DNA from: a virus
Taxonomy: Duplodnaviria > Caudoviricetes
IMG/VR virus record: IMGVR_UViG_3300044507_000063
Coordinates: 1-38,040 of that record
Length of the DNA: 38,040 nucleotides
Strand: one strand, 5' to 3'
The notes under the pieces were generated by a model, which made no database searches, was not told the DNA's origin, and saw only the letters and a list, made by a program, of their open reading frames with translations. Of the stretch, positions 1,831-38,040 are shown piece after piece (the first letter of the stretch is position 1; every line of letters begins with the position of its first letter). The position numbers were made by a program, and so were the translations under genes.

Positions 1831-2339
1831 TGAGAAAAGAACTACGAGCTAAATTAATAGATAGAGAAGAAGGTAAATCATACCAAGAATGTGATCCTTG
1901 TGCTGTTCCTATTTATGAAGAAGAATCTAAGAAAACAGATGAACGTACATGGATATCGCTAGGCAATCGAATGTTCCATATCGAAGACGTACAGAGTATG
2001 TACATCCAAGCAAATCATTTAATCATAAATTTTGATTACACAGAAAAACAAGTAGTGATTCATTTTGGTCATGGAGAAGAAGGTAAGAAAAATGCAGAAA
2101 CGGTTTTTGAATGTTTAAGAGAAATGTATGGAGCCTACAAACTTAATCTTCCTGAAGGGGCAAATTTATATCCTAATCTGATGGAAACTGCATATGGTGA
2201 TCAAGTAAGAAGAGAAATACAATCTCGTGTACACTTTGAAACAACGAAATTTAAAGAAAGACATAAAAATAAATTAAGAAAGCTTACAGATGAATTAACT
2301 GAACTAAAGAGAAAAATGTTAAAAGATGAAGGTAAATAA
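1830..2339 (+). CDS. hypothetical protein, C-terminal coiled coil
   Basis: 169 aa; TAATG stop/start coupling at both ends. Confidence 0.7.
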   Translation: MRKELRAKLIDREEGKSYQECDPCAVPIYEEESKKTDERTWISLGNRMFHIEDVQSMYIQANHLIINFDYTEKQVVIHFGHGEEGKKNAETVFECLREMYGAYKLNLPEGANLYPNLMETAYGDQVRREIQSRVHFETTKFKERHKNKLRKLTDELTELKRKMLKDEGK

Positions 2340-2503
2340 TGGGAATAGCTGAAATCATTACAGTTTTTGCAGTAGTTGCCACAAATTTAGGCACAGTTAT
2401 TGCCTTGTATTGTCAAACCGATAGAAAATTGGATGCAATACATGCAGAAATAAAAGATTTTCATGGTCGTCTTTGCGCTATCGAAGAGAGGAACAAGAAA
2501 TGA
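2339..2503 (+). CDS. small membrane/coiled-coil protein, DFHGRL family copy 1 (54 aa)
   Basis: MGIAEIITVFAVVATNLGTVIALYCQTDRKLDAIHAEIKDFHGRLCAIEERNKK; below the ORF-track cutoff; paralogous to its neighbours. Confidence 0.8.
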   Translation: MGIAEIITVFAVVATNLGTVIALYCQTDRKLDAIHAEIKDFHGRLCAIEERNKK

Positions 2504-2647
2504 GATCAGGGAAATAAGAAGATTTGCTCTATATGTAATGTAGAATTTAAAGCATCAAAAAATACAAGAAAATTTTGCTCAAAAAAATATTACTATACCT
2601 CAATAAAGAATGAAAGGAAAATAAAATGGACTGGATACAATTTATAA
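2500..2647 (+). pseudogene. frameshifted zinc-finger remnant
   Basis: ATG at 2500 stops after 5 codons; another frame reads KICSICNVEFKASKNTRKFCSKKY, resembling the CxxC...CS repeats of 28009..28290. Confidence 0.4.
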
Positions 2648-2838
2648 TTTTCATTGGGTCTACAGTTGGTCTATTTTTTTGGAATAGATCAGAATCACGA
2701 TCAGATATGAGGCAGATTTTAGGTATGATTGATGCTATACAAAAAGAAATAAAAGATTTTCACGGAAGACTTGAACGTCAAGATGCCGAATTTAAATCGC
2801 ATTTGATGTTTTATCATCAAGAAAGGAATAAGAAATAA
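2626..2838 (+). CDS. small membrane/coiled-coil protein, DFHGRL family copy 2
   Basis: N-terminal hydrophobic helix, WNRSESR.D.R and KDFHGRL motifs; AAGGA RBS. Confidence 0.85.
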   Translation: MDWIQFIIFIGSTVGLFFWNRSESRSDMRQILGMIDAIQKEIKDFHGRLERQDAEFKSHLMFYHQERNKK

Positions 2839-3047
2839 TGGAAGATACAAATATTTTAACATTAATCTTAGGTAATGCAGCTATCATTTTGCCTCTTTTC
2901 CTATGGAACAGGTCAGAATCTAGAGCAGATATCCGACACATGGATGCAAAATTGGAATCTACCAGGGAACTAGTTAGAGCTATCTATGAAGAAAGTAAGG
3001 ATTTTCATGGTCGATTATTAGCTATTGAAGAAAGGAATAAAAAGTGA
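2838..3047 (+). CDS. small membrane/coiled-coil protein, DFHGRL family copy 3
   Basis: WNRSESRADIR...KDFHGRLLAIEERNKK; translationally coupled. Confidence 0.85.
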   Translation: MEDTNILTLILGNAAIILPLFLWNRSESRADIRHMDAKLESTRELVRAIYEESKDFHGRLLAIEERNKK

Positions 3048-3229
3048 ATAAAGAAAACTTTTTAAAAAATCACGCTGATACATTAGCGATTATAGGTGTG
3101 AATATTGCTATTGCTGCAATTCTTATTACAATGAGTTTATCAAATTCGAGTAGAATAGATGCGGCAAATTCTAGAATGGATACTTTGCATGTGATGTTTT
3201 ACGATCTTCTAAAAGAATGGAAAAAATAA
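3044..3229 (+). CDS. small membrane/coiled-coil protein related to the intron-1 cargo ORF
   Basis: TM helix followed by SRMDTLHVMFYDLLK; GTG start overlaps the upstream stop. Confidence 0.75.
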   Translation: MNKENFLKNHADTLAIIGVNIAIAAILITMSLSNSSRIDAANSRMDTLHVMFYDLLKEWKK

Positions 3230-13053: not shown

Positions 13054-13431
13054 ATGAACGACTTCATAAAAGGCAAAGGTTCGGTAGGTATAGCAATATC
13101 CTACTATTCATTAAGAGGGATGGTTAGCATCCCACTAGAACCTTGTGATTACAATCTTATATTTGACGATGGCACAAAACTTCATACAGTAAAAGTAATT
13201 TCTTGTTCCTATAAGACAAAATATGGAGTTTACTCAGCTTCAATAAAAACATCCGGCGGTAATCAGCCTACTACTCAATCAAAAATATTTAATCCGAAAT
13301 CATGTTCTACTGTATTTATTGTTACTGCTGAAATGCATCTTTACGAGATACCTTCTAATGTAATTCAATCCACTAGACAAATTTCTTTATGTAAATATCA
13401 CGAATATAATGTTTCTATTATTCCGAGTTAG
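13054..13431 (+). CDS. group I intron-associated-type PD-(D/E)XK endonuclease, free-standing
   Basis: KG..G..I...G..VSIP....DYNLIFD.G.KL..V.V pattern of the I-Ssp6803I-like family; catalytic motif looks altered. Confidence 0.65.
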   Translation: MNDFIKGKGSVGIAISYYSLRGMVSIPLEPCDYNLIFDDGTKLHTVKVISCSYKTKYGVYSASIKTSGGNQPTTQSKIFNPKSCSTVFIVTAEMHLYEIPSNVIQSTRQISLCKYHEYNVSIIPS

Positions 13432-13493
13432 CTCAGCGGTAGAGCAGTGCGCTGTTAACGCATTGGCCGTAGGTTCGAATCCTACACTCGGAG
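13422..13493 (+). tRNA. tRNA-Asn(GTT)
   Basis: Acceptor TCCGAGT/ACTCGGA, D arm GCTC/GAGC, anticodon stem GTGCG/CGCAT with GTT at 13454-13456, T arm GTAGG-TTCGAAT-CCTAC; CCA not encoded. Confidence 0.95.
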
Positions 13494-15311: not shown

Positions 15312-15728
15312 TTATAATGCCACTTGGAGAGTGCAACGCAAGTTGACAATCCAAGATGTGTTAGTAATGTTAAACACCTGCGCCATCTTCCAACCAGCTG
15401 TTTGATACAATCTCAAGCGTGGCGATGCAATCTCTGGTGGTGCATAGATAAATTGAGCGGAATAACCGTCCAAATCAACCATGTCATATGATTCTTGACC
15501 AGGCAAGAATACGTTATATACATCTGCACCTTTTTCAGAAGCATTAGGCGTTACCGATCCAACTGAAGACAGAAGGAAACGAACGTTTCTTACTGTACCC
15601 CATTCGGATTGAAGCAGGTTAGACTGATTAGCGTAGTTAGCTACGTTAATAAATCCGACCATTTGGTCTAGATCTGCCGACAGATTCGTGTGGCCAAGGC
15701 CAAAGAATGCTGTACGAACTGGAGCTGT
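15312..15728 (-). CDS. major capsid protein exon 4 (138 aa)
   Basis: TAPVRTAFF...EWGTVRNVRF...DVY...GWK; joins exon 3 to give EGELKFG|TAPV. Confidence 0.9.
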   Translation of the reverse strand, partial: TAPVRTAFFGLGHTNLSADLDQMVGFINVANYANQSNLLQSEWGTVRNVRFLLSSVGSVTPNASEKGADVYNVFLPGQESYDMVDLDGYSAQFIYAPPEIASPRLRLYQTAGWKMAQVFNITNTSWIVNLRCTLQVAL

Positions 15729-16344
15729 CAATTCTGTTACTTTTTATTGACCTATTTGATACAACTATCCATTGCTATCTAAGCAAAGTTGCTCACTCCC
15801 ACCAGACCGGTACTTGTTGTGGGGCAGCTCTTCACTTTTCGCCTGATGAGTCATCTGACGAAACTCCTCGGAGTCGCGAAGCGCTACCAAGAAGAGTAGG
15901 TTGTAGCAGTGGCCGGTCATTTTTCAAATAGGCGGAGGGTCTTGTTATTCCCCTCTCACTGCCTTTATTTATTCGCAGTGTTCGGACTATCGCATCCTTG
16001 ATGCAGTGATGACCATCTTTCTAACCCACAAATTTCACAAGGTGGATTAATTAAAATTCCTTCACTATCATACAAGGCTTCGGGACTTAGTCTCTCAGGC
16101 TGTGAATTAATTAAATCATATTCTTTTATAGATCTACTTTCATACATTGTGGCTAAACTTTTCCATTTTATTGCATATTGGACATTTAATGTTATTCCAA
16201 TATCATTTCCGTGATCTCCGTTTTCACCACTACTTTCGTTCAATAAATATGCTTTTTTCATCACTTGCCCCTTGTTAACCTCCCACTTTACGCAGCGAGG
16301 CACTCCAAGTCAATCACCCAAAGTTTTAATTCGGCACACACTTT
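15729..16344 (-). mobile_element. group I intron 3 (616 nt)
   Basis: P1 AATTCGGT/GCCGAATT with U.G at the splice site; P7 GAGACTA (about 16088-16094) and GATAGTCC (about 15984-15991); terminal G after GTAACAGAATT. Confidence 0.92.
15828..15896 (+). ncRNA. type I hammerhead ribozyme, antisense to intron 3
   Basis: CTGATGA 15843-15849; stem II GTC-atct-GAC; GAAA 15860-15863; stem III ACTC-ctcg-GAGT; GTC cleavage triplet ending at 15875; stem I TTTCGC/GCGAAG extended by CTCTTC/GAAGAG. Confidence 0.88.
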
Positions 16345-16455
16345 ACCGAATTTCAATTCACCTTCGATCAAGTCCATAATGAACTGAGCGTTAGCCGTTC
16401 TCAATAACCGTACCGCTTTCGAGCAATCCAATGGGCTGATGTTTGTTGGGTTGTC
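16345..16455 (-). CDS. major capsid protein exon 3 (37 aa)
   Basis: DNPTNISPLDCSKAVRLLRTANAQFIMDLIEGELKFG; bounded by an omega-G and a P1. Confidence 0.88.
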
Positions 16456-16473
16456 CCACCCATCTATTACTTG

Positions 16474-16502
16474 TTGACTTAAACATTTTCAGTAGGTATA
16501 CT
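16474..16502 (+). promoter_or_regulatory. promoter of the antisense LAGLIDADG gene
   Basis: TTGACT-17-TATACT; ATG at 16509 is 7 nt downstream, with no RBS. Confidence 0.7.
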
Positions 16503-16508
16503 ATGCCT

Positions 16509-17390
16509 ATGAAAAACACATTATCATATTTAGCAGGATATATTGACGGGGATGGTTGTTTCTTCCTTAAAAAGGAGACAAATCCTCTCAAATATCGAGC
16601 GTATATTGTTATTTCCTCTACTAATGAAGAGGTTCTTAAAACCTTTGAACTTTCTTTTGGGGGAAGCATATACGCTTGCACTCCTAGAAAAGAACACTGG
16701 AAAAGATCTTATCATTGGAATTGTAGAGGAAAATTTGCTTTGGAAATAACTAATGCAATGCTTGAATTTCTCACAGAAAAGAAGAGCGATGCTCTTATCT
16801 TCATAGATTATATTAAAACTTCTTGCAAAAACCACAAACAGGAATTGATTCAAAAAATGAAAAATAATAGAGATAAAATTAGAGAAATTAATGAATCTGT
16901 TGTTGAACAGATTAAACAAACAAAAACAATTGGAGTTTCTAACGAATTGGATTATCCTTATCTTGCTGGTTTTATTGACGCTGAATGCTGTCTGGGAGTC
17001 TCTAAATACAAGCCTAAAAACAAACCCAATTTTACATACAAAATCATCCTTCAATGTCAAAACACTAATCCTATCATTTTCTTTTGGCTTATGGAGAGAT
17101 TCGGAGGAAGTATTTCGCATGTCAAACGCAATATTAAAAATCCTAATCATCGAGATCAAATAATCTGGAATATTAGTGCTGCTAAATTGGCTGACATACT
17201 TCCTAAGATCTTGCCTTTTTTGAGATCTAAAAAATCCGTTTGTGAAAAGCTTATTGAACTTCATAACACTAATATTCCAATAGGAATAAGCAGAAAAACA
17301 CAAGAATTCAGAGATTCTTATGCTCTTGTACTTATCCAGAGGGATAAAATTGTTGATGATATTCATAAACTCAATTCCAAAGGTGTATAA
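16509..17390 (+). CDS. double-motif LAGLIDADG homing endonuclease (293 aa)
   Basis: YLAGYIDGDG and YLAGFIDAEC motifs, each followed by FGG.I and W...L.FL..KK. Confidence 0.92.
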   Translation: MKNTLSYLAGYIDGDGCFFLKKETNPLKYRAYIVISSTNEEVLKTFELSFGGSIYACTPRKEHWKRSYHWNCRGKFALEITNAMLEFLTEKKSDALIFIDYIKTSCKNHKQELIQKMKNNRDKIREINESVVEQIKQTKTIGVSNELDYPYLAGFIDAECCLGVSKYKPKNKPNFTYKIILQCQNTNPIIFFWLMERFGGSISHVKRNIKNPNHRDQIIWNISAAKLADILPKILPFLRSKKSVCEKLIELHNTNIPIGISRKTQEFRDSYALVLIQRDKIVDDIHKLNSKGV

Positions 17391-17596
17391 TGTTTAAGCG
17401 GGTAGTCATTTCTGCTACCTCTCCATATTACTATGGAGGCTGGACTATCGCATATGCTATTTACATAGCATCCTCAGGGTTTAGTCTCTCAGGCTGCGCA
17501 TTACCGCTTGCCCCTTATTGTCCTTTGCTGTATACTTTACGCAGCAAGTGGGAGTTTTAAGTCAATTACCCAAGGTTTTAAAACGGCAACAATTCT

Positions 17597-17923
17597 ACCG
17601 TTTGTACCACTTGTACAATTAATTGGTGGGGCACCTCCTTCCATCATTGACCTGGCTAGCTGATCCTCAGTCTCTCTTAATGACTGACCCAAAACGGATA
17701 CAGCCGAATTTAAAACCGGGTCTTCGTTAATCAACATTACCTGTTCCTGAAGTATGATATAGGTGCCATACCAATCGATCCTGGCGTCTATGTCAAGTGC
17801 GGTAAGTTGCTGCGCTGGAGGATCTACGATACCGTTACCTAATGGTACAGGTGCAGTTTGCAAGTTTTGATATCTACGACGACGTAGAATATCGCCAGCT
17901 TGCTGATCCATCGTAATGGGATA
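17597..17923 (-). CDS. major capsid protein exon 2 (109 aa)
   Basis: YPITMDQQAGDILRRRRYQNL...YGTYIIL.EQV...EDPVLN...CTSGTNG, an N4-gp56-like capsid pattern. Confidence 0.9.
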
Positions 17924-18086
17924 CATTCTGTTACTTTATGACCTAATGTTACATCGCATTACATTGCTCACATATAGGCGACCACCTCATTTCTGGGTGG
18001 TTCCCTGATTTTATTTATTGTCAGGGGTCGGACTATCACATATCATATTGTTATTATCATCAATATGATCCTCTGGGTTTAGTCTC

Positions 18087-18245
18087 TTACGGTGTGTTTT
18101 TGGTTTTTATTAAATCAATAAACATTTCATAAAGTTTATCTGTTCTTGCAGTTTGCTGTCTCATGTCTGCTATAATATCCCTATGTATGAAATATGCAGA
18201 TCCTAAAACAGTAAATATGATCGATAAAGTTTGTATCCATTCCAT
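18087..18245 (-). CDS. intron-encoded small membrane protein (52 aa)
   Basis: MEWIQTLSIIFTVLGSAYFIHRDIIADMRQQTARTDKLYEMFIDLIKTKNTP; GGAGG RBS; stop codon abuts P7. Confidence 0.85.
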   Translation of the reverse strand: MEWIQTLSIIFTVLGSAYFIHRDIIADMRQQTARTDKLYEMFIDLIKTKNTP

Positions 18246-18267
18246 AAATCCTCCATTTTTTCGGAAG

Positions 18268-18296
18268 ATTATATCATGTTTATCGTTTATTTTCAA
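18268..18296 (-). promoter_or_regulatory. intron-internal sigma70-type promoter
   Basis: TTGAAA-17-TATAAT with extended -10 TG. Confidence 0.8.
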
Positions 18297-18365
18297 ACAC
18301 TTCCGCCATGTCACCCTGTCGGGCTTCCATGTCAATTACCAAAGGTTTTAAATGGGCTATCGTTA

Positions 18366-18473
18366 ACCCATTGTAGTATGGATCAAGTCTGGCATAGGAC
18401 GTGCAAGCAACTTCATCGAAAGCTGTTGTTGTACAGCTGGAGGAAGAATGCTTGTGGTTGTTGGACCTGACAT
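18366..18473 (-). CDS. major capsid protein exon 1 (36 aa); spliced product 320 aa
   Basis: MSGPTTTSILPPAVQQQLSMKLLARPMPDLIHTTMG; GGAG RBS; follows the scaffold gene. Confidence 0.88.
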
Positions 18474-31072: not shown

Positions 31073-31275
31073 ATCAGCAACTTTATAATCAGATTGCCGA
31101 TAATTTTTACGAGATCGTTGAAGAACTTTACAACTCTAAAAATGCGATCTCGGAAGAAAGAATAAATTTTAATGTAGAACAACTCTGCAACACATTTGGA
31201 ATAGACACGGATATTTTAAAAGATGGTCTTTGCGTTAAGCATAAAAATAAAAGGTATATTTATGAATCTACATAG
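31069..31275 (+). CDS. hypothetical protein
   Basis: GGAG RBS; ATGA coupling. Confidence 0.65.
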   Translation: MNQQLYNQIADNFYEIVEELYNSKNAISEERINFNVEQLCNTFGIDTDILKDGLCVKHKNKRYIYEST

Positions 31276-31915
31276 TGAACAAATCAATGAAATCTCTACT
31301 GCTTTATCTAAGGCACAAGGGGAAATTAAAGCGGCTCAGAAAGATGGAACTAATCCTCATTTTAAGTCTAAGTTCAGTACTTTACATAGTCATTGGGAAG
31401 CTTGTCGTCCGATCTTGTCTAAAAACGGATTAGCGGTCACTCAGTTAGCAAATATGCTAGAAGATGGACGAGATGTGCTTGTGACCATTTTATCGCATTC
31501 TAGCGGCCAATGGTTCAAGTCTTCGATGGTTCTTAAACCTGTAAAAAACGATCCGCAAGGAATGGGATCTTGTTTGTCATATGCTAGGCGTTATATGTTA
31601 TCTGCCATCGTAGGCACAACATCCGATGACGATGATGATGATGCGGAGGCTGCTTCCGGTCGTGGTAAAGATACTAAACCTGTACCTAAGCCTGCTAAAG
31701 TAGAAGCATCCCCAGAAGCTATAAAAATAGTCGATGCTAATCAAGCTCTTGAATTATTGACCTTGAGATTGAAGCTTGATAGTCCTGATAGGAAATTGTT
31801 TGACGATTGGGTTGTGAAAACCTATATGATTAACTCACTTGAATATCTTCCAGAATCAGGATATGACAAAGTTTTGCTAATTCTGAGAAAGAAGGTGCCT
31901 AATGAAGATAATTAA
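31262..31915 (+). CDS. ERF-family ssDNA annealing protein
   Basis: AL.KAQ....A.KD..NPHFKS, T.L.H.SGQW, PQ..GS..SYARRY.L...G...DDD. Confidence 0.92.
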   Translation: MNLHSEQINEISTALSKAQGEIKAAQKDGTNPHFKSKFSTLHSHWEACRPILSKNGLAVTQLANMLEDGRDVLVTILSHSSGQWFKSSMVLKPVKNDPQGMGSCLSYARRYMLSAIVGTTSDDDDDDAEAASGRGKDTKPVPKPAKVEASPEAIKIVDANQALELLTLRLKLDSPDRKLFDDWVVKTYMINSLEYLPESGYDKVLLILRKKVPNEDN

Positions 31916-32474
31916 TATGTCTCAAGACACTCCTGAATGGTTGGCATGGCGTCGTAGTTGTGTGACGGCAACAGACGCCAGCGTCATTATGGGTGTTAAT
32001 CCTTATTGCAAGATTGATAAGCTCCGACTAAAAAAGTTGGGGCTTCTTCCTGAAGAGGAAGTTAATCAATTTATGCAAAGAGGTAAAAATCTTGAACCTG
32101 AAGCCCGTAATAAATTTAATAAAGATAATGCAATGGATATGGTTCCGATGATTGTTGAATCGTCGGAACATCCATTTTTAGGAGCTTCTCTTGATGGTTT
32201 TTATAAAATTGCTGATGACACATCATTTATTTTAGAAGTCAAATGCCCAATGAAGAATAGTATGGATGAAGCAAAATCTGGTATTGTAAAGCCGCTTTAC
32301 ATTGCTCAAATGCAGCACCAATTGCTTGTCACAGGTACAGACATATGCTATTACTATTGCTACGATGGATCAGAAGGTCATACAATCGAAGTATACCCTG
32401 ACAAAGAATGGCAATCTGAATACTTGCCAAAAGCAGAAGAGTTTTGGATGAGTTTGATATTTTACAAGGAATAA
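31902..32474 (+). CDS. YqaJ-like viral recombinase exonuclease
   Basis: Q.TPEW..WR...TA.D, RG..LEP.AR, ASLDG, EVKCP, Y.AQ.QHQ. Confidence 0.92.
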   Translation: MKIINMSQDTPEWLAWRRSCVTATDASVIMGVNPYCKIDKLRLKKLGLLPEEEVNQFMQRGKNLEPEARNKFNKDNAMDMVPMIVESSEHPFLGASLDGFYKIADDTSFILEVKCPMKNSMDEAKSGIVKPLYIAQMQHQLLVTGTDICYYYCYDGSEGHTIEVYPDKEWQSEYLPKAEEFWMSLIFYKE

Positions 32475-33372: not shown

Positions 33373-34725
33373 TTAACCCATTAGAAATCCCGACATCATA
33401 GTGGAAGCGCCTTCAGTTGTACTTAATATATCGACAACTTTGCTTCCTCCAGTAACAGAAAGCGTTACGGTATAAGTATCCGCGGCATCCAAATCTGCTA
33501 ATACTGATCCAGTAATTTGAATACTTCCAAAATTATTAGCAACGTTTGCAGCATTTGCTGTATAAATTAGATAAGTTCTGTTAGATGTTACCATGCTTAC
33601 GGTAACATTTACTAGACCTGCAACAACTCCACCCACAGCTACAGCACATGTAAGCATATATCGACCAGTAACGGGCGCTGTGAAAGTACCTGTTGCAAAA
33701 TTATTTGCCTGATCGAATATTTTTGTTAATGCTGTCGTTGTTCCAAGCGTGAAGACGGTTCCATCTCCAGTAACATTTGAAACTTGAGTTGGCAGAATGG
33801 CTAAAAAAGCAGGTTGATTCTGACTTTTCCATTTACCAAGATTCATGAAATTGGCATTTTGAGTTGTTGTATTGATTACACTAGAAGAACCTGAAAATGC
33901 AATACCGGAAATAACAATAGTTCCAGCTCCTGTTATAGCATTCGTATTTGTGCTTGAAACATCACAAAGGGTTAAAGTCAATGTAGCATTAACACTAACG
34001 CTAATAGCACTAGATGAACCACCTGAAAATCTACATTCAGATAATATATTGTTTGATGATGATGCTCCATGAGTAATGCATGTAACACCTAAACCCATGT
34101 TAACATACAACATATTTAAAACGCCAGTTGATGACGTTGTAATAGCAAAAGCTATTGTACTATATCTTATGCTGACAGTACCACCAGAAATTGTCGATGT
34201 TCCAATATTATTAGTATCGTGATAAAGAAAAAATAAATTCAATGTTCCTGCGCTAACGTCAAAGAAAGCATTTGTATTTGTAAAATTTACACCTACGCAA
34301 TGAAGCAAATCAAGCGTTGCATTTGCATTGGATAAACTTATTCCTGTTGCTGTTGTAACAATCACTTCGCAGTTTATTAAATTTAAACTTGTCGCATTTG
34401 ATCCTGAACATGTAATTACGTTTGCTGAATTAGTATTTTCCAGATTTATTCCAGATATGTTAACGATTCCTGTATATGTAGCTGTTAATGTTCCGTTAAT
34501 TACAACGTTCCCAAAAAAAATTCCATCGCATGTATAAGATGTTAAATTAACCCCGGCTTTGAGTGAAAGGTTCTCTATAAATGTCCCGGGCATTATAAAA
34601 ATCGTATCGCCTGCTGATGCGCTTGTAATTGCTGTGGCTATGGTCGTGTGCGTGCCTTCACCGGCTACCGTAGAAACTACCCATTTTGCAGGGCTATAAA
34701 AATTGATTGCATTGGCTTGAACCAT
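33373..34725 (-). CDS. tail fibre/spike with beta-helix-like body and C1q-like C-terminus
   Basis: TTIATAI..A..GDTI.I.PG.F.ENL.L start of a beta-helix; FTAPVTGRY C1q motif. Confidence 0.75.
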   Translation of the reverse strand: MVQANAINFYSPAKWVVSTVAGEGTHTTIATAITSASAGDTIFIMPGTFIENLSLKAGVNLTSYTCDGIFFGNVVINGTLTATYTGIVNISGINLENTNSANVITCSGSNATSLNLINCEVIVTTATGISLSNANATLDLLHCVGVNFTNTNAFFDVSAGTLNLFFLYHDTNNIGTSTISGGTVSIRYSTIAFAITTSSTGVLNMLYVNMGLGVTCITHGASSSNNILSECRFSGGSSSAISVSVNATLTLTLCDVSSTNTNAITGAGTIVISGIAFSGSSSVINTTTQNANFMNLGKWKSQNQPAFLAILPTQVSNVTGDGTVFTLGTTTALTKIFDQANNFATGTFTAPVTGRYMLTCAVAVGGVVAGLVNVTVSMVTSNRTYLIYTANAANVANNFGSIQITGSVLADLDAADTYTVTLSVTGGSKVVDILSTTEGASTMMSGFLMG

Positions 34726-34754
34726 TAGATTTTAATCCTTTTCTTAACGATTTA

Positions 34755-35765
34755 TTATGCAGATAATGTCCAAGATCCTATTGAAGATACTGCGTAGAAG
34801 AACCCATCTGTTGCATTAAATCTCAAAGTTAAACTATCGCCTATTGCAGTACTTGTAGCTGAACCTGCTGCTCCAGTTATAGAAGCACCAACACGTATTT
34901 TTTGAGCAGTAACTGACTGAATAATTAAGGCCCCAGCAGTGGTGCAAACAAAAATGAAGAGATCTCCATCTGCCAACCCAGCGGACGCAGGAAGTGTGCG
35001 TGTTACTGCTGCAGTAACGAATTCACCGGTATTAAGGGAAGATGTAGCACTGGCACCAACTTGAGAGAATGGAGGGCTTTTAACGGTTAGTGTAGATCCT
35101 GATCCTGATGTTTTAGATCCAGAAAGTCCTAGAATATTCCAATTTCCGAGTAATGGACTAAGCGCACCTCCTGAATCACCAGTAATTTTTTCACCGATTC
35201 CAGATCCATTAACGGAAACAAAACCATTTGCATCACATGTAAATCGCGCACTATCAAAATTAGCTAAACCTATTTTGTTTCCGTCACTAGCTGCCAATGC
35301 TTGACTTATTTGCACTTGTAAAGCCATTGTATTGACTCCAGTGCCTTTTGTACTTACTGGATTTGTGCCAGAACTGACAGTGACACCATTAAAAGTCACA
35401 ACACCAAAAGAAGGCACAACAGGAGTGATTCCGCTTTGTAATGCGAATTTTTCTACTGCAGCACCTCCTCCAACAAGTGTAACAAATCCATTAGAATCTA
35501 CTGCAAAAATAGTCGAATCAAAAGCTGCTACGCCGACTTTAGTAGCATCAGTAGCAAGTATCGCTTGTGATAATTGGATTTTACCCGTAACTGTATTACC
35601 TGATCCTGTTGTACTGAAAGGCGTAGAACCTGCTACAGAAGTTGCTCCAAAAATATTCAAAACATTTAATGCTGGAATTGCAGTTCCAGAATTAGTAACA
35701 AAACTTGTCGGAACATCGGGAGGTAATATGGAATCAGCAATTTTTAAAATTCCAGCTTGGCTCAT
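34755..35765 (-). CDS. tail fibre protein with internal duplication
   Basis: Two copies of Q.SQA..A.D..K.G.A.FDS..F..D.NGFV; TLPA...GD...GDSLTL....W C-terminal module. Confidence 0.7.
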
Positions 35766-36110
35766 TTATTCACCTTTACCGTATATGGCTACCAAATATA
35801 CTGTACCTGTAGCCGGAAGAGTTGGAGCTGTTAAATATTTAACATATACTTGCGTTCCCAATTCATATCTAAACATTTCATTAGCATCTTCGTCACTCGT
35901 CAAGTCATAAAGCGAAAAAGAATTAGATAATACGACAGTATTTATTGTGGTTCCATCAAAACTGATAGCCATATCTCCATTCGTATTATTTATGAAATGG
36001 AGCACGCGCATAGCGTGCCCAAATGAAGAACCTAAAGTTTTAAATGAAGATGTAATATCTGCTAATGCTATAGTGCGAATAGCATCAAATCTAACTATAT
36101 TACTAGCCAT
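35766..36110 (-). CDS. hypothetical structural protein
   Basis: 114 aa, within the fibre operon. Confidence 0.65.
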   Translation of the reverse strand: MASNIVRFDAIRTIALADITSSFKTLGSSFGHAMRVLHFINNTNGDMAISFDGTTINTVVLSNSFSLYDLTSDEDANEMFRYELGTQVYVKYLTAPTLPATGTVYLVAIYGKGE

Positions 36111-36112
36111 GT

Positions 36113-36304
36113 TTACTCTGTTTTTTCTTGTTCAGGCTCATTTTTTTTATCTACATTTTGAGCTTCGTTAATCTTACCGACAACAAAAGATCTCATTTGA
36201 AATAGTGCATCATGTACTTCTCCAAGTGGTGAATCTGAAGGAAGAAGCAATTGATAAATTCTTTCACCGATTTTCACTTCTAACATTGCTGATTGTTTTA
36301 ACAT
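36113..36304 (-). CDS. hypothetical protein (possible fibre chaperone)
   Basis: 63 aa, follows the long fibre gene. Confidence 0.6.
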   Translation of the reverse strand: MLKQSAMLEVKIGERIYQLLLPSDSPLGEVHDALFQMRSFVVGKINEAQNVDKKNEPEQEKTE

Positions 36305-36360
36305 AAAAACTCTCTTTTAAAAGGTTAAAGGAATATTTTGTATATCCTTTAACTTATTTA

Positions 36361-38040
36361 TTATGCAATAAGTTGACCACAGAAATATGTTTGTGCCGAT
36401 GCTGCACCAACAATATCATCTGTATCGCCACCTTCACCTGTTACAGCAATCGTTACGTGTGCTGTATCTGTTGCTGTCATACTTACCAAAGCACTAATTT
36501 GTACAGACTCATCTTGAGAACCTGCTGCTTTAGTGAATGTGTTAATATAAGTTCTACCAGTAGCAACGATTGATATAACAAAAGTTGTAGCAATTGTCGT
36601 CCCTGTTACCGTTACTTGTGATCGCAGATCATATATACCTGTTACTGGGGCAGTAAATACGCCTGATGTTGTTGCATTTGAACCTTTATCAAAATCAGAT
36701 GTTAAAGTGGCACCTGTTCCTAAAGTATAAGCTGTCCCCGTTCCAGTGACATTTGTCTGAGTACTATTCAATCTAAGGAAGAAACAAGGATTGGTAGATT
36801 TAAGAACGTTACCAACCATTGTGACATTGCCAGTACCAGAGTTAATCGTGGTAGAAGCAGCACCATTTGTGGAACCGAGAATTAACACGTGTGCAGCAGC
36901 TCCATTGGCTATTGATACAGCACCTGCGCGCGTAGCACCTGTAGAAAGAATATTAACAGTTTGAGTACCTGCTGAGGCTGCTCCGTTCATAATATTTAGG
37001 GTTGTACTTGCTCCAGGTGTTGTACCATTTAAGATATTTACAGTTTGAGCAGAGGACGAAGATGTCCCTGACGCAATGTTAAGAACCTGAGCACCAGCAG
37101 CTACACCATTCATAATATCTACAGCTGGCATAGCAGCTGTAGAATCTGCAATACTAATCTTACCAGTCTGTGCCGCTGCTCCAATAGTGATTATCTGAGC
37201 TGCGTTACCACCTAGACCAATGCCAATAGTTGCTGCTGAACCACCAATAATTGTTACGTTACCACCCGCATTTGATCCGATAGAGACTGTATGTGCTGCA
37301 CCTGTTCCAGTGGCTATTTTAACAGCGGCAGCTTGTGATGCACCGTTATTCGATATGATATTAACGGCATTTGTACCGCCTGTGAAAGCACCAGCAAACA
37401 GATTAAATGTATTTGTTCCTGATGAAATCGCACCACCGAATATATTTGCTGTGTCGGTTGCGCCGGCAATAATACCATTAAACAAGTTAAAGTTTTGTGA
37501 TCCTGTAGTATTTGCACCACCGAGAATATCAATTTGCTGTGTACCTGCACTTGCAATCCCTGCCATAATTGTTAATTGCTGGCTTGCAGCAGGTGTTGCA
37601 CCATCAAGAATATGCACTGTGCTGGTTTGTGTTGCTGTTGCGCCTCCAGCAATTGAAATGACTTGGGCAGTTGTATTCGTACCATTTCCAATAGATATTT
37701 GGTTACCTGATACACCATCGCCAATCGAGATAGTTTTAACGCCTGCGCCTGTTCCACCAAGTTTGATAGTAATAGGTTGAGAACCTGTACCCACGTTTAC
37801 CGCTGATGTACCTGTTGCAACGTTTCCTGTCATTAGGTTTAATGTTTGCGCTACTGCTGCACTGGTAACGCCGTTCATGATATTAAGCGTTTGTGCAGCC
37901 CCTGGGGTTGCACCACTCAAAATGTTAACGGTTGATGTGCCTGTATTCGATGCTGCATTGCTAATATTAATGCTTTCAGCGGCTGTTGAAATGCCCACAG
38001 ATATATCACCTGTTTGTAATGCTCCTCCAATTTGGATTGT
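36361..38040 (-). CDS. C-terminal part of the 929-aa tail fibre; C1q-like tip
   Basis: About 13-aa repeats of type T.NI..G; FTAPVTGIY motif; continues from 1237 across the origin. Confidence 0.85.
   Translation of the reverse strand, partial: TIQIGGALQTGDISVGISTAAESINISNAASNTGTSTVNILSGATPGAAQTLNIMNGVTSAAVAQTLNLMTGNVATGTSAVNVGTGSQPITIKLGGTGAGVKTISIGDGVSGNQISIGNGTNTTAQVISIAGGATATQTSTVHILDGATPAASQQLTIMAGIASAGTQQIDILGGANTTGSQNFNLFNGIIAGATDTANIFGGAISSGTNTFNLFAGAFTGGTNAVNIISNNGASQAAAVKIATGTGAAHTVSIGSNAGGNVTIIGGSAATIGIGLGGNAAQIITIGAAAQTGKISIADSTAAMPAVDIMNGVAAGAQVLNIASGTSSSSAQTVNILNGTTPGASTTLNIMNGAASAGTQTVNILSTGATRAGAVSIANGAAAHVLILGSTNGAASTTINSGTGNVTMVGNVLKSTNPCFFLRLNSTQTNVTGTGTAYTLGTGATLTSDFDKGSNATTSGVFTAPVTGIYDLRSQVTVTGTTIATTFVISIVATGRTYINTFTKAAGSQDESVQISALVSMTATDTAHVTIAVTGEGGDTDDIVGAASAQTYFCGQLIA
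37914..38040. repeat. 127-bp terminal overlap
   Basis: Identical to 1-127. Confidence 0.97.

Follow-up and report, generated by a model that had tools for sequence, protein, structure and literature searches.

The L6a loop of a group I-type intron in the major capsid gene of this phage rather probably houses an expression cassette, itself likely mobile, from which a small peptide would be made independently of late capsid transcription. The window analyzed here is the whole virus record, 38,040 bases in length, and all positions refer to it unless another locus is named. Phage group I introns are usually regarded as empty or nuclease-bearing; in several introns here, both the place and the regulatory layout of the nuclease gene have passed to a non-nuclease accessory gene. 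If the peptide is expressed, introns of essential genes can be protected, exchangeable sites for accessory genes, and annotation pipelines miss such intron-borne genes.

Architecture of the interrupted capsid gene

The major capsid gene (18473 to 15312, minus strand) consists of four exons and three introns, all on the minus strand. Joining the exons from 18366 to 17923, from 17597 to 16455, and from 16345 to 15728 yields 320 codons, with a product 94% identical to the intronless capsid protein of locus L005. Exon 1 (18366 to 18473) supplies 36 codons, exon 2 (17597 to 17923) matches the PHROG 1357 major head protein, exon 3 (16345 to 16455) continues the spliced frame, and exon 4 (15312 to 15728) again matches PHROG 1357 (E = 5.6e-12). 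Intron 2 (16456 to 17596), also of group I type, has a short L6a and a long insert after P7′. Antisense within it lies a double-motif LAGLIDADG gene (16443 to 17390, plus strand; Pfam PF00961, E = 3.9e-12), which could mobilize neighboring introns by co-conversion and for which a promoter-like site is present at 16474 to 16502. The L6a loop of intron 3 (15729 to 16344, group I type) contains the start of an orphan open reading frame (ORF) of 98 codons (16261 to 15965, minus strand) that begins 5 nt after P6 and runs through the catalytic core; its loop part had no homologue in the protein collection.

Across the phage group (loci L001 to L119), introns occur at many sites of the capsid gene, some of them in tandem, and exons can be very short (examples are L124, L104, and L143). 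Antisense in the P9 region of intron 3 of the window, we also noted a hammerhead-like ribozyme motif with a complete core and three helices (15838 to 15880, plus strand). Its Rfam match is weak, the 1.03 Mb of loci examined contain no second motif of this kind, and it does not fold by itself within the tested fragment.

Intron 1 has the anatomy of a group I intron

Intron 1 (17924 to 18365, minus strand; 442 nt) was delimited by comparison with uninterrupted alleles. We fetched 80 capsid loci, 47 of which could be scored at the codon of intron 1 (site 1): 27 of these relatives are intronless there, and the other 20 are interrupted by an intron at this codon. The boundaries are fixed because intronless alleles exist. 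The last base of exon 1 is a U paired to a G in P1 (18352 to 18371), the helix that spans the 5′ splice site, and the terminal base of the intron is G; the 21 introns at site 1 all share this final G and follow an identical exon end. The fold of intron 1 also stands out from those of shuffled sequences (z = −5.8).

With helix names (P1 to P9, L6a, and J6/7) that follow the group I nomenclature, the 5′ part of the core (18303 to 18344) comprises the 5′ arm of P3 (18344 to 18339), J3/4, P4 (18332 to 18328), P5, P4′ (18310 to 18306), and the 5′ arm of P6 (18305 to 18303). The 3′ part (18030 to 18092) comprises P6′ (18092 to 18090), J6/7, P7 (18086 to 18081), P3′ (18076 to 18071), P8, and P7′ (18034 to 18030). 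P6 is CGG/CCG. The two arms of P6a are GTGTTT (18295 to 18300), which overlaps the −35 box described below, and AAACAC (18094 to 18099).

We assessed covariation in 68 distinct introns of the same type (85 with duplicates) recognized in the loci examined. The core helices P3, P4, P6, and P7 occur in order, with compensatory changes, in the lineage of intron 1. In P7, a compensatory change divides the introns into pair types found in 37 and 23 of them; the arms of P3 form a mean of 6.69 pairs with their own partners versus 4.99 when partners are swapped (maximum, 5.39; 49 distinct pairs), and P6 has six pair types across the introns, its complementarity having been part of the search. The Rfam group I model gave no match in the window or in 12 sister loci, most of them with short loops, so that the model fails to recognize this intron lineage altogether; the group I label therefore rests on anatomy and covariation. 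Intron 1 is likely self-splicing. The preliminary description, which placed a self-contained gene other than a nuclease gene in the P6-region loop (L6a) of a group I intron, is supported on these points.

The cargo belongs to a large family of mostly free-standing genes

The cargo gene (18087 to 18245, minus strand) encodes 52 amino acids. Its last codons are the P6a′ and P6′ arms, and its stop codon, TAA (18089 to 18087), constitutes J6/7 and directly precedes P7. We recovered this ORF, its stop abutting P7, the P6a arms, the promoter, and the GGAGG motif on the minus strand exactly where they had originally been reported. The GC content of the ORF is 0.30, lower than the 0.37 of the window and the 0.44 of exon 2.

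AlphaFold2 models the peptide as one helix (residues 2 to 49; pLDDT, 94). Its initial designation as a membrane protein stands as far as a helix with a hydrophobic N terminus is predicted, but the hydropathy is modest: the best 19-residue mean, which is N-terminal, is 1.39, compared with 1.47 to 2.44 in the four array proteins described below. We regard the cargo peptide as a predicted membrane protein. A homo-trimer prediction scored 0.19 against a mark of 0.42, and a fold search with the one-helix model against viral structures returned 0 matches.

The peptide itself had no match in Pfam, PHROG, or NCBIfam; 14 of 74 relatives match the unnamed family phrog_22965, and 0 of 74 family members match PF10960 (BhlA/UviB). 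Together with the cargo, the family numbers 110 proteins, most of them 60 to 88% identical; the ORF is conserved, and the preliminary description had named lack of conservation as a refuting result. Two longer relatives merely repeat the helical motif. Of the 90 distinct family genes in the loci examined, 84 do not lie in an intron core of this kind; the family is large, often multicopy, and normally free-standing in these phages. Between all pairs of family genes compared, synonymous differences (0.49 to 1.01) contrast with nonsynonymous ones (0.11 to 0.46), which shows purifying selection, a signal that covers the free-standing history too and is no proof of selection inside the intron. Of the 4 DNA sequencing runs examined (8 were listed), only those of the possible source sample gave reads across the cargo ORF.

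The window also holds an array of four small genes with hydrophobic N termini (2339 to 3229, plus strand), and a neighbor gene of this kind is present in 22 of 76 free loci. The cargo had been linked to this array from the outset. Profile tests, which covered two of the four genes (those at 2626 and 3044), support the link: the N-terminal half of the cargo matches 2626 to 2838 (hhalign E = 1.9e-6) and the C-terminal half matches 3044 to 3229 (E = 9.7e-7), values from single-target profiles that the hydrophobic-plus-helix makeup may inflate. The relationship is nonetheless distant. Since pairwise identity is just 21 to 27%, we view the array genes as distant paralogue subfamilies and not as the source of the cargo, the nearest relatives of which are free-standing genes of other phages.

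A predicted promoter and a predicted Shine-Dalgarno-pairing hairpin precede the cargo gene

A sigma-70-like promoter is predicted at 18268 to 18296 (minus strand), with TTGAAA (18296 to 18291), a 17-nt spacer, TATAAT (18273 to 18268), and an extended −10 element (TG), followed by a GGAGG Shine-Dalgarno (SD) sequence (18250 to 18254, minus strand) upstream of the cargo ORF. At 11 of 12 consensus positions, it is the best of 15 promoter-like sites between 15000 and 20000 and the only one with that score; the count of sites alone, 15 found versus 15.4 expected by chance, is no evidence. Among the six intron-borne copies of the family described in the next section, the promoter reaches 11/12 in the window and L143 and 6/12 to 8/12 in the other four, and a strong two-box promoter is present in just two. 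Several free-standing copies have a −10 box of their own.

The SD sequence pairs within a predicted hairpin of eight base pairs (18247 to 18270, minus strand). The 5′ arm of this hairpin shares bases with the −10 box and is located upstream of the transcription start predicted at ∼18261. The predicted cost of opening the SD region in the window is 9.8 kcal/mol in a long context versus 0.7 in a transcript that starts after the −10 box. The median cost is 6.0 kcal/mol in the intron-borne copies (n = 6) versus 1.9 in free ones (n = 37) (P = 1.3e-4 by a Mann-Whitney test, in which the six copies are not independent), and in four of the six it drops to 0.2 to 0.8 after the predicted start. Hairpins surpassed shuffled sequences at a P value of 0.1 or less in 4 of 6 intron-borne versus 4 of 37 free copies, with differing stem sequences; those of L120 and L126 were not above shuffles. 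Free-standing copies thus mostly appear, from predicted folds, to be without an SD-locking hairpin. As the SD is predicted to be locked in intron-borne copies and mostly unlocked in free ones, the cargo looks like a tuned passenger and not like neutral debris.

We propose that intron 1 still splices with the cassette in L6a. On the capsid pre-mRNA, the hairpin would hide the SD sequence and keep ribosomes out of P6 and P7 while the ribozyme folds, whereas transcripts from the internal promoter would start within the hairpin, so that the SD sequence would be free and translation could proceed up to the stop in J6/7. Transcripts of the latter kind could not splice because P1 to P5 would be absent from them. 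By geometry, the promoter would fire into exon 2, as had been pointed out before, but nothing suggests that a transcript unable to splice contributes to capsid expression. No terminator-like site was found on the minus strand of intron 1. An in-frame ATG overlaps its 3′ splice site; this ATG has no clear SD sequence and also stands at the end of cargo-free introns such as those of L001 and L032.

The cargo family is present in other capsid introns

Because the Asn-Thr-Pro end of the cargo is spelled by intron helices, relatives with the same end are predicted to be intron-borne, and 8 of the 110 family proteins have such an intron-type C terminus. We additionally used a targeted DNA pattern in which the ORF end is joined to the P6′-P7 core, a search that is aimed at intron-borne cases and gives no frequency. 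It produced 23 matches in metagenomes (6 real and 17 chance) and a single match, which was real, in viral sequences. The real matches represent five further distinct intron-borne sequences: L120, L121, L124 (identical to L136 and L138), L126, and L143. Among the eight proteins with an intron-type C terminus, P0080 is the product of L121.

The capsid genes that host intron-borne copies are 38 to 94% identical to that of the window in exon 4, and the copies occupy four capsid sites in all, three besides that of the window (exon context judged by eye; the contigs L120, L121, and L126 have the 3′ exon only). P6 and the P6a arms are common to all six copies, and all six ORFs are intact. The stop lies at J6/7 in five of them, the window included, while the ORF of L120 runs on through the core. 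The association of cargo and intron is rare: protein-based viral scans recovered 0 intron-borne copies among 16 and 68 loci. The 5′ cassette motif had 59 matches in viral contigs, one of which was a true intron (L143), and no other cargo was found behind such a P6a; every P6a of the cassette type that we found carried the cargo family.

Cassette and coding sequence appear to have separate histories

The introns that most resemble intron 1 in their cores contain other cargo (identity of 0.87 to L114, 0.86 to L102, 0.85 to L064, and 0.84 to L031), and those of L102, L064, and L031 occupy the same site. The core identity of intron 1 to the introns of L143 and L124, both of which carry the cargo family, is 0.65 (rank 40 of 64), and the core of L143 is in turn closest to an empty intron at L143's own site. 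The cargo family is absent from all 20 other introns at site 1, of which 9 have a LAGLIDADG-like ORF (motif assigned by eye) and the remainder have short or other inserts. Swapping of cargo, to be looked for in homologous introns according to the preliminary description, is thereby apparent, as inserts differ between sister introns at one and the same site. In L001, L006, L023, L024, L030, L032, L033, L034, and L065, site 1 is occupied by another intron lineage, unrelated to the first and ∼700 nt long, in which the LAGLIDADG-like ORF has a single motif.

The cargo tree was built from 50 columns and 29 rows chosen from 69. One clade of the six intron-borne ORFs was rejected (p-AU = 0.001), and with it the idea that the cargo had been captured once and then inherited. 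The window ORF groups with free-standing genes and the L143 ORF with the free gene of L220; P0111, which has a free-type C terminus, nests among intron-type proteins. The leaders of the window and L143 match at 39 of 48 nt in the 50-nt leader, while the ORFs differ at 88% of synonymous sites, and the best three of 42 leaders compared are all intron-borne.

From these sequence relationships, we infer that recombination in the conserved P4′-P6 and P6′-P7 flanks moves the P6a-promoter cassette from intron to intron. Its coding part would be replaced from the free pool by exchange with free-standing paralogues through the ends they have in common, with the ERF/RecE-like system of the phage as the probable agent. 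ERF/RecE-like systems use short homologies, and the ERF-like and RecE-like genes of the window (31223 to 32474) are plausible agents of this exchange.

L6a inserts across sister introns

L6a is 40 nt or shorter in 36 of the 68 introns, 41 to 300 nt long in 25, and longer in 7. Nuclease-like genes, recognized by eye, are present in L6a of seven introns (five antisense LAGLIDADG-like and two HNH-like). The 25 loops of 41 to 300 nt contain the cargo family in 5 cases, ORFs that read through the core in 17, and neither in 3 (the truncated L126 is not counted). These 17 among the 20 other midsize inserts, 16 of them in one frame, begin 3 to 8 nt after P6 and stay open through the core. The ORFs are mutually dissimilar, many have CxxC pairs, and no clear free-standing homologue was seen among the loci examined. 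Captured genes and remnants of nucleases are both conceivable as their origin, and a purine run in P4′/P6 could serve as their SD sequence. Read-through loops were noted in L002, L003, L019, L029, L031, L036, L043, L064, L067, L080, L102, L104, and L114. Coding-like inserts also occur in L5 of L002 (2637 to 3146), L067 (3590 to 4006), and L031 (3424 to 4003); those of L002 and L067 look similar when translated, and L067 stays open from P3 to P9.

Somewhat speculatively, L6a of capsid introns in this phage group might serve generally as a slot for cassettes of accessory genes, and two modes would be built into it. One would be the self-promoted cassette, with its SD sequence locked on the capsid pre-mRNA; the other would consist of promoterless short ORFs placed right after P6, with the P4′/P6 purine run as the SD sequence and translation competing with splicing. 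The introns would then act as traffic points for phage-conflict genes, spread by the homing endonucleases of neighboring introns.

Possible function and alternative explanations

A small, fast-swapping, multicopy predicted membrane peptide with a host-type promoter suggests, by analogy and tentatively, superinfection exclusion of the HK97 gp15 kind. The peptide might sit in the inner membrane and block the entry of competing phages, as small moron proteins do, a guess that we hold with equal reserve. Holin-like or toxin-like roles are alternatives.

The cassette might instead be neutral, which we consider unlikely. A common, often self-promoted gene family would then have entered a tolerant loop without benefit, and the hairpin and the J6/7 stop would be what a splicing filter leaves. 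A large, often multicopy family (84 distinct free copies), several members of which have their own −10 box, the hypervariable length of L6a, and the rarity of intron-borne copies (8 of 110 by C terminus) would all be expected under such hitchhiking. The intactness of all six intron-borne ORFs, the retention of the window/L143 leader while synonymous sites are near saturation, and the presence of the cargo family in each P6a of the cassette type found argue against it. The preliminary term “neutral landing site” also fits poorly with intron-borne copies that show an SD-locking hairpin, a J6/7 stop in five of six cases, and a conserved leader.

It is improbable, in our estimate, that the arrangement serves the capsid gene itself, with internal transcription or ribosomes stopping at J6/7 tuning splicing or giving a transcript from exon 2 onward and the peptide being incidental. 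The cargo stop codon does belong to the catalytic core, intron 1 is without a minus-strand terminator-like site and has an in-frame ATG across its 3′ splice site, and the other midsize L6a inserts are mostly read-through ORFs in one frame. Yet purifying selection acts on the peptide sequence as it does on the free paralogues, the hairpin would bar ribosomes from the pre-mRNA, the splice-site ATG is without a clear SD sequence and also ends cargo-free introns, and the cassette is found at four different capsid sites. Still far less credible is a cargo derived from a homing endonuclease or maturase: nuclease-like genes do occupy L6a in 7 of 68 sister introns, and the promoter-plus-hairpin layout is that of the nuclease genes in T4 introns, but the cargo matches no LAGLIDADG, HNH, GIY-YIG, or other nuclease family. 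Its model is a single helix, a motif that the two longer relatives repeat, and the family is complete and free-standing elsewhere. Our preferred reading remains an expression cassette that is likely mobile.

Relation to known systems

The nuclease I-TevI also lies in L6a. On td transcripts of phage T4, the SD sequence of I-TevI is hidden, and it is freed on transcripts from the intron promoter, according to the available part of the source (PMC2988022). The same partial account gives the introns of td, nrdB, and nrdD, with I-TevI, I-TevIII, and I-TevII, respectively, their own promoters and an SD-sequestering hairpin on the long transcript, as in intron 1; the T4 cargo is a homing endonuclease with middle/late promoters, whereas that of intron 1 is a 52-residue non-nuclease with a predicted sigma-70-like promoter (PMC2988022). 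The exchange of cargo with free-standing paralogues proposed here is a further difference from the T4 introns.

Capsid-gene group I introns are known from the mycobacteriophage LittleE and the Lactococcus phage Tuc2009, and LittleE has an antisense LAGLIDADG gene like that of intron 2 in the window; as far as the sections available go, the cargo in both phages is a nuclease and no accessory gene is present, unlike in intron 1 (PMC3706429). Fungal mitochondrial introns do contain non-nuclease genes (rps3, aminotransferases, and N-acetyltransferases), as intron 1 does, but these introns are organellar, their cargo consists of enzymes or ribosomal proteins, and the portion of the source at hand describes neither phages nor cassette exchange between introns (PMC8393795). 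IStrons likewise join a bacterial group I intron to genes other than a classical homing endonuclease; from partial texts, that cargo is part of an IS element, the mobility of which it supports, and nothing similar is found here (10.1101/2023.11.20.567912; PMC2504315). Swapping of nuclease genes in homologous introns has already been described (PMC2504315, in the part available). A Bastillevirinae survey classed all intron loop proteins as endonucleases, including one group without a detectable domain (PMC11878797, available part), and 90 to 99% of annotated ORFs in CPR rRNA insertions are homing endonucleases (PMC11270868, available part). In the literature, covered partially and without supplements, we found no report of a non-nuclease accessory (membrane-peptide) cassette in phage introns. 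If its peptide is expressed, intron 1 offers a compact 442-nt test case for translation and self-splicing sharing one RNA.

The HK97 gp15 moron is a gene for a small inner-membrane protein with its own promoter in a structural operon, an arrangement similar to that of the cargo; in the part of the report available, morons sit between genes and have terminators, while the cargo lies inside an intron where no terminator was found (PMC3594210). The earlier comparison to morons is accordingly apt for the predicted promoter, the variable presence among close phages, and the lower GC content, but not for the terminator, and a moron role presupposes lysogeny, of which no sign in the form of an integrase was seen among the ORFs scanned. 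The BhlA/UviB holin-like and YvrJ families resemble the cargo in having a short hydrophobic N terminus followed by a helical tail; their ESM Atlas scores of 0.85 to 0.87 (0.85 to 0.86 for BhlA/UviB) fall below the 0.9 line of the tool and serve as a lead only.

Phage and genomic setting

The window encodes a P22-like portal protein, a terminase, ERF-like and RecE-like proteins, helix-turn-helix regulators, and the PHROG 1357 major head protein; no integrase was found among the window ORFs scanned. A capsid search of cultured phages revealed no close relative, with the window capsid 26 to 29% identical to five records, and the cargo peptide had 0 matches among cultured phages. Chlamydiota records account for 2 of 10 genome matches to the cargo family, one of the two being located on a 1.3-Mb contig, and the rest are in assorted bins, a weak hint of a chlamydial host for the window phage. 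The family member on the 1.3-Mb Parachlamydiaceae contig (L144, 2459 to 2662) is surrounded by genes that do not look phage derived, which suggests transfer of a family member into a host chromosome. Elsewhere in the window, a tRNA gene with the anticodon GTT (13422 to 13493, plus strand) lies between head genes and adjoins a small plus-strand gene (13054 to 13431). Two long minus-strand genes with C-terminal C1q-like domains (33373 to 37998) are candidates for unusual tail or receptor-binding proteins.
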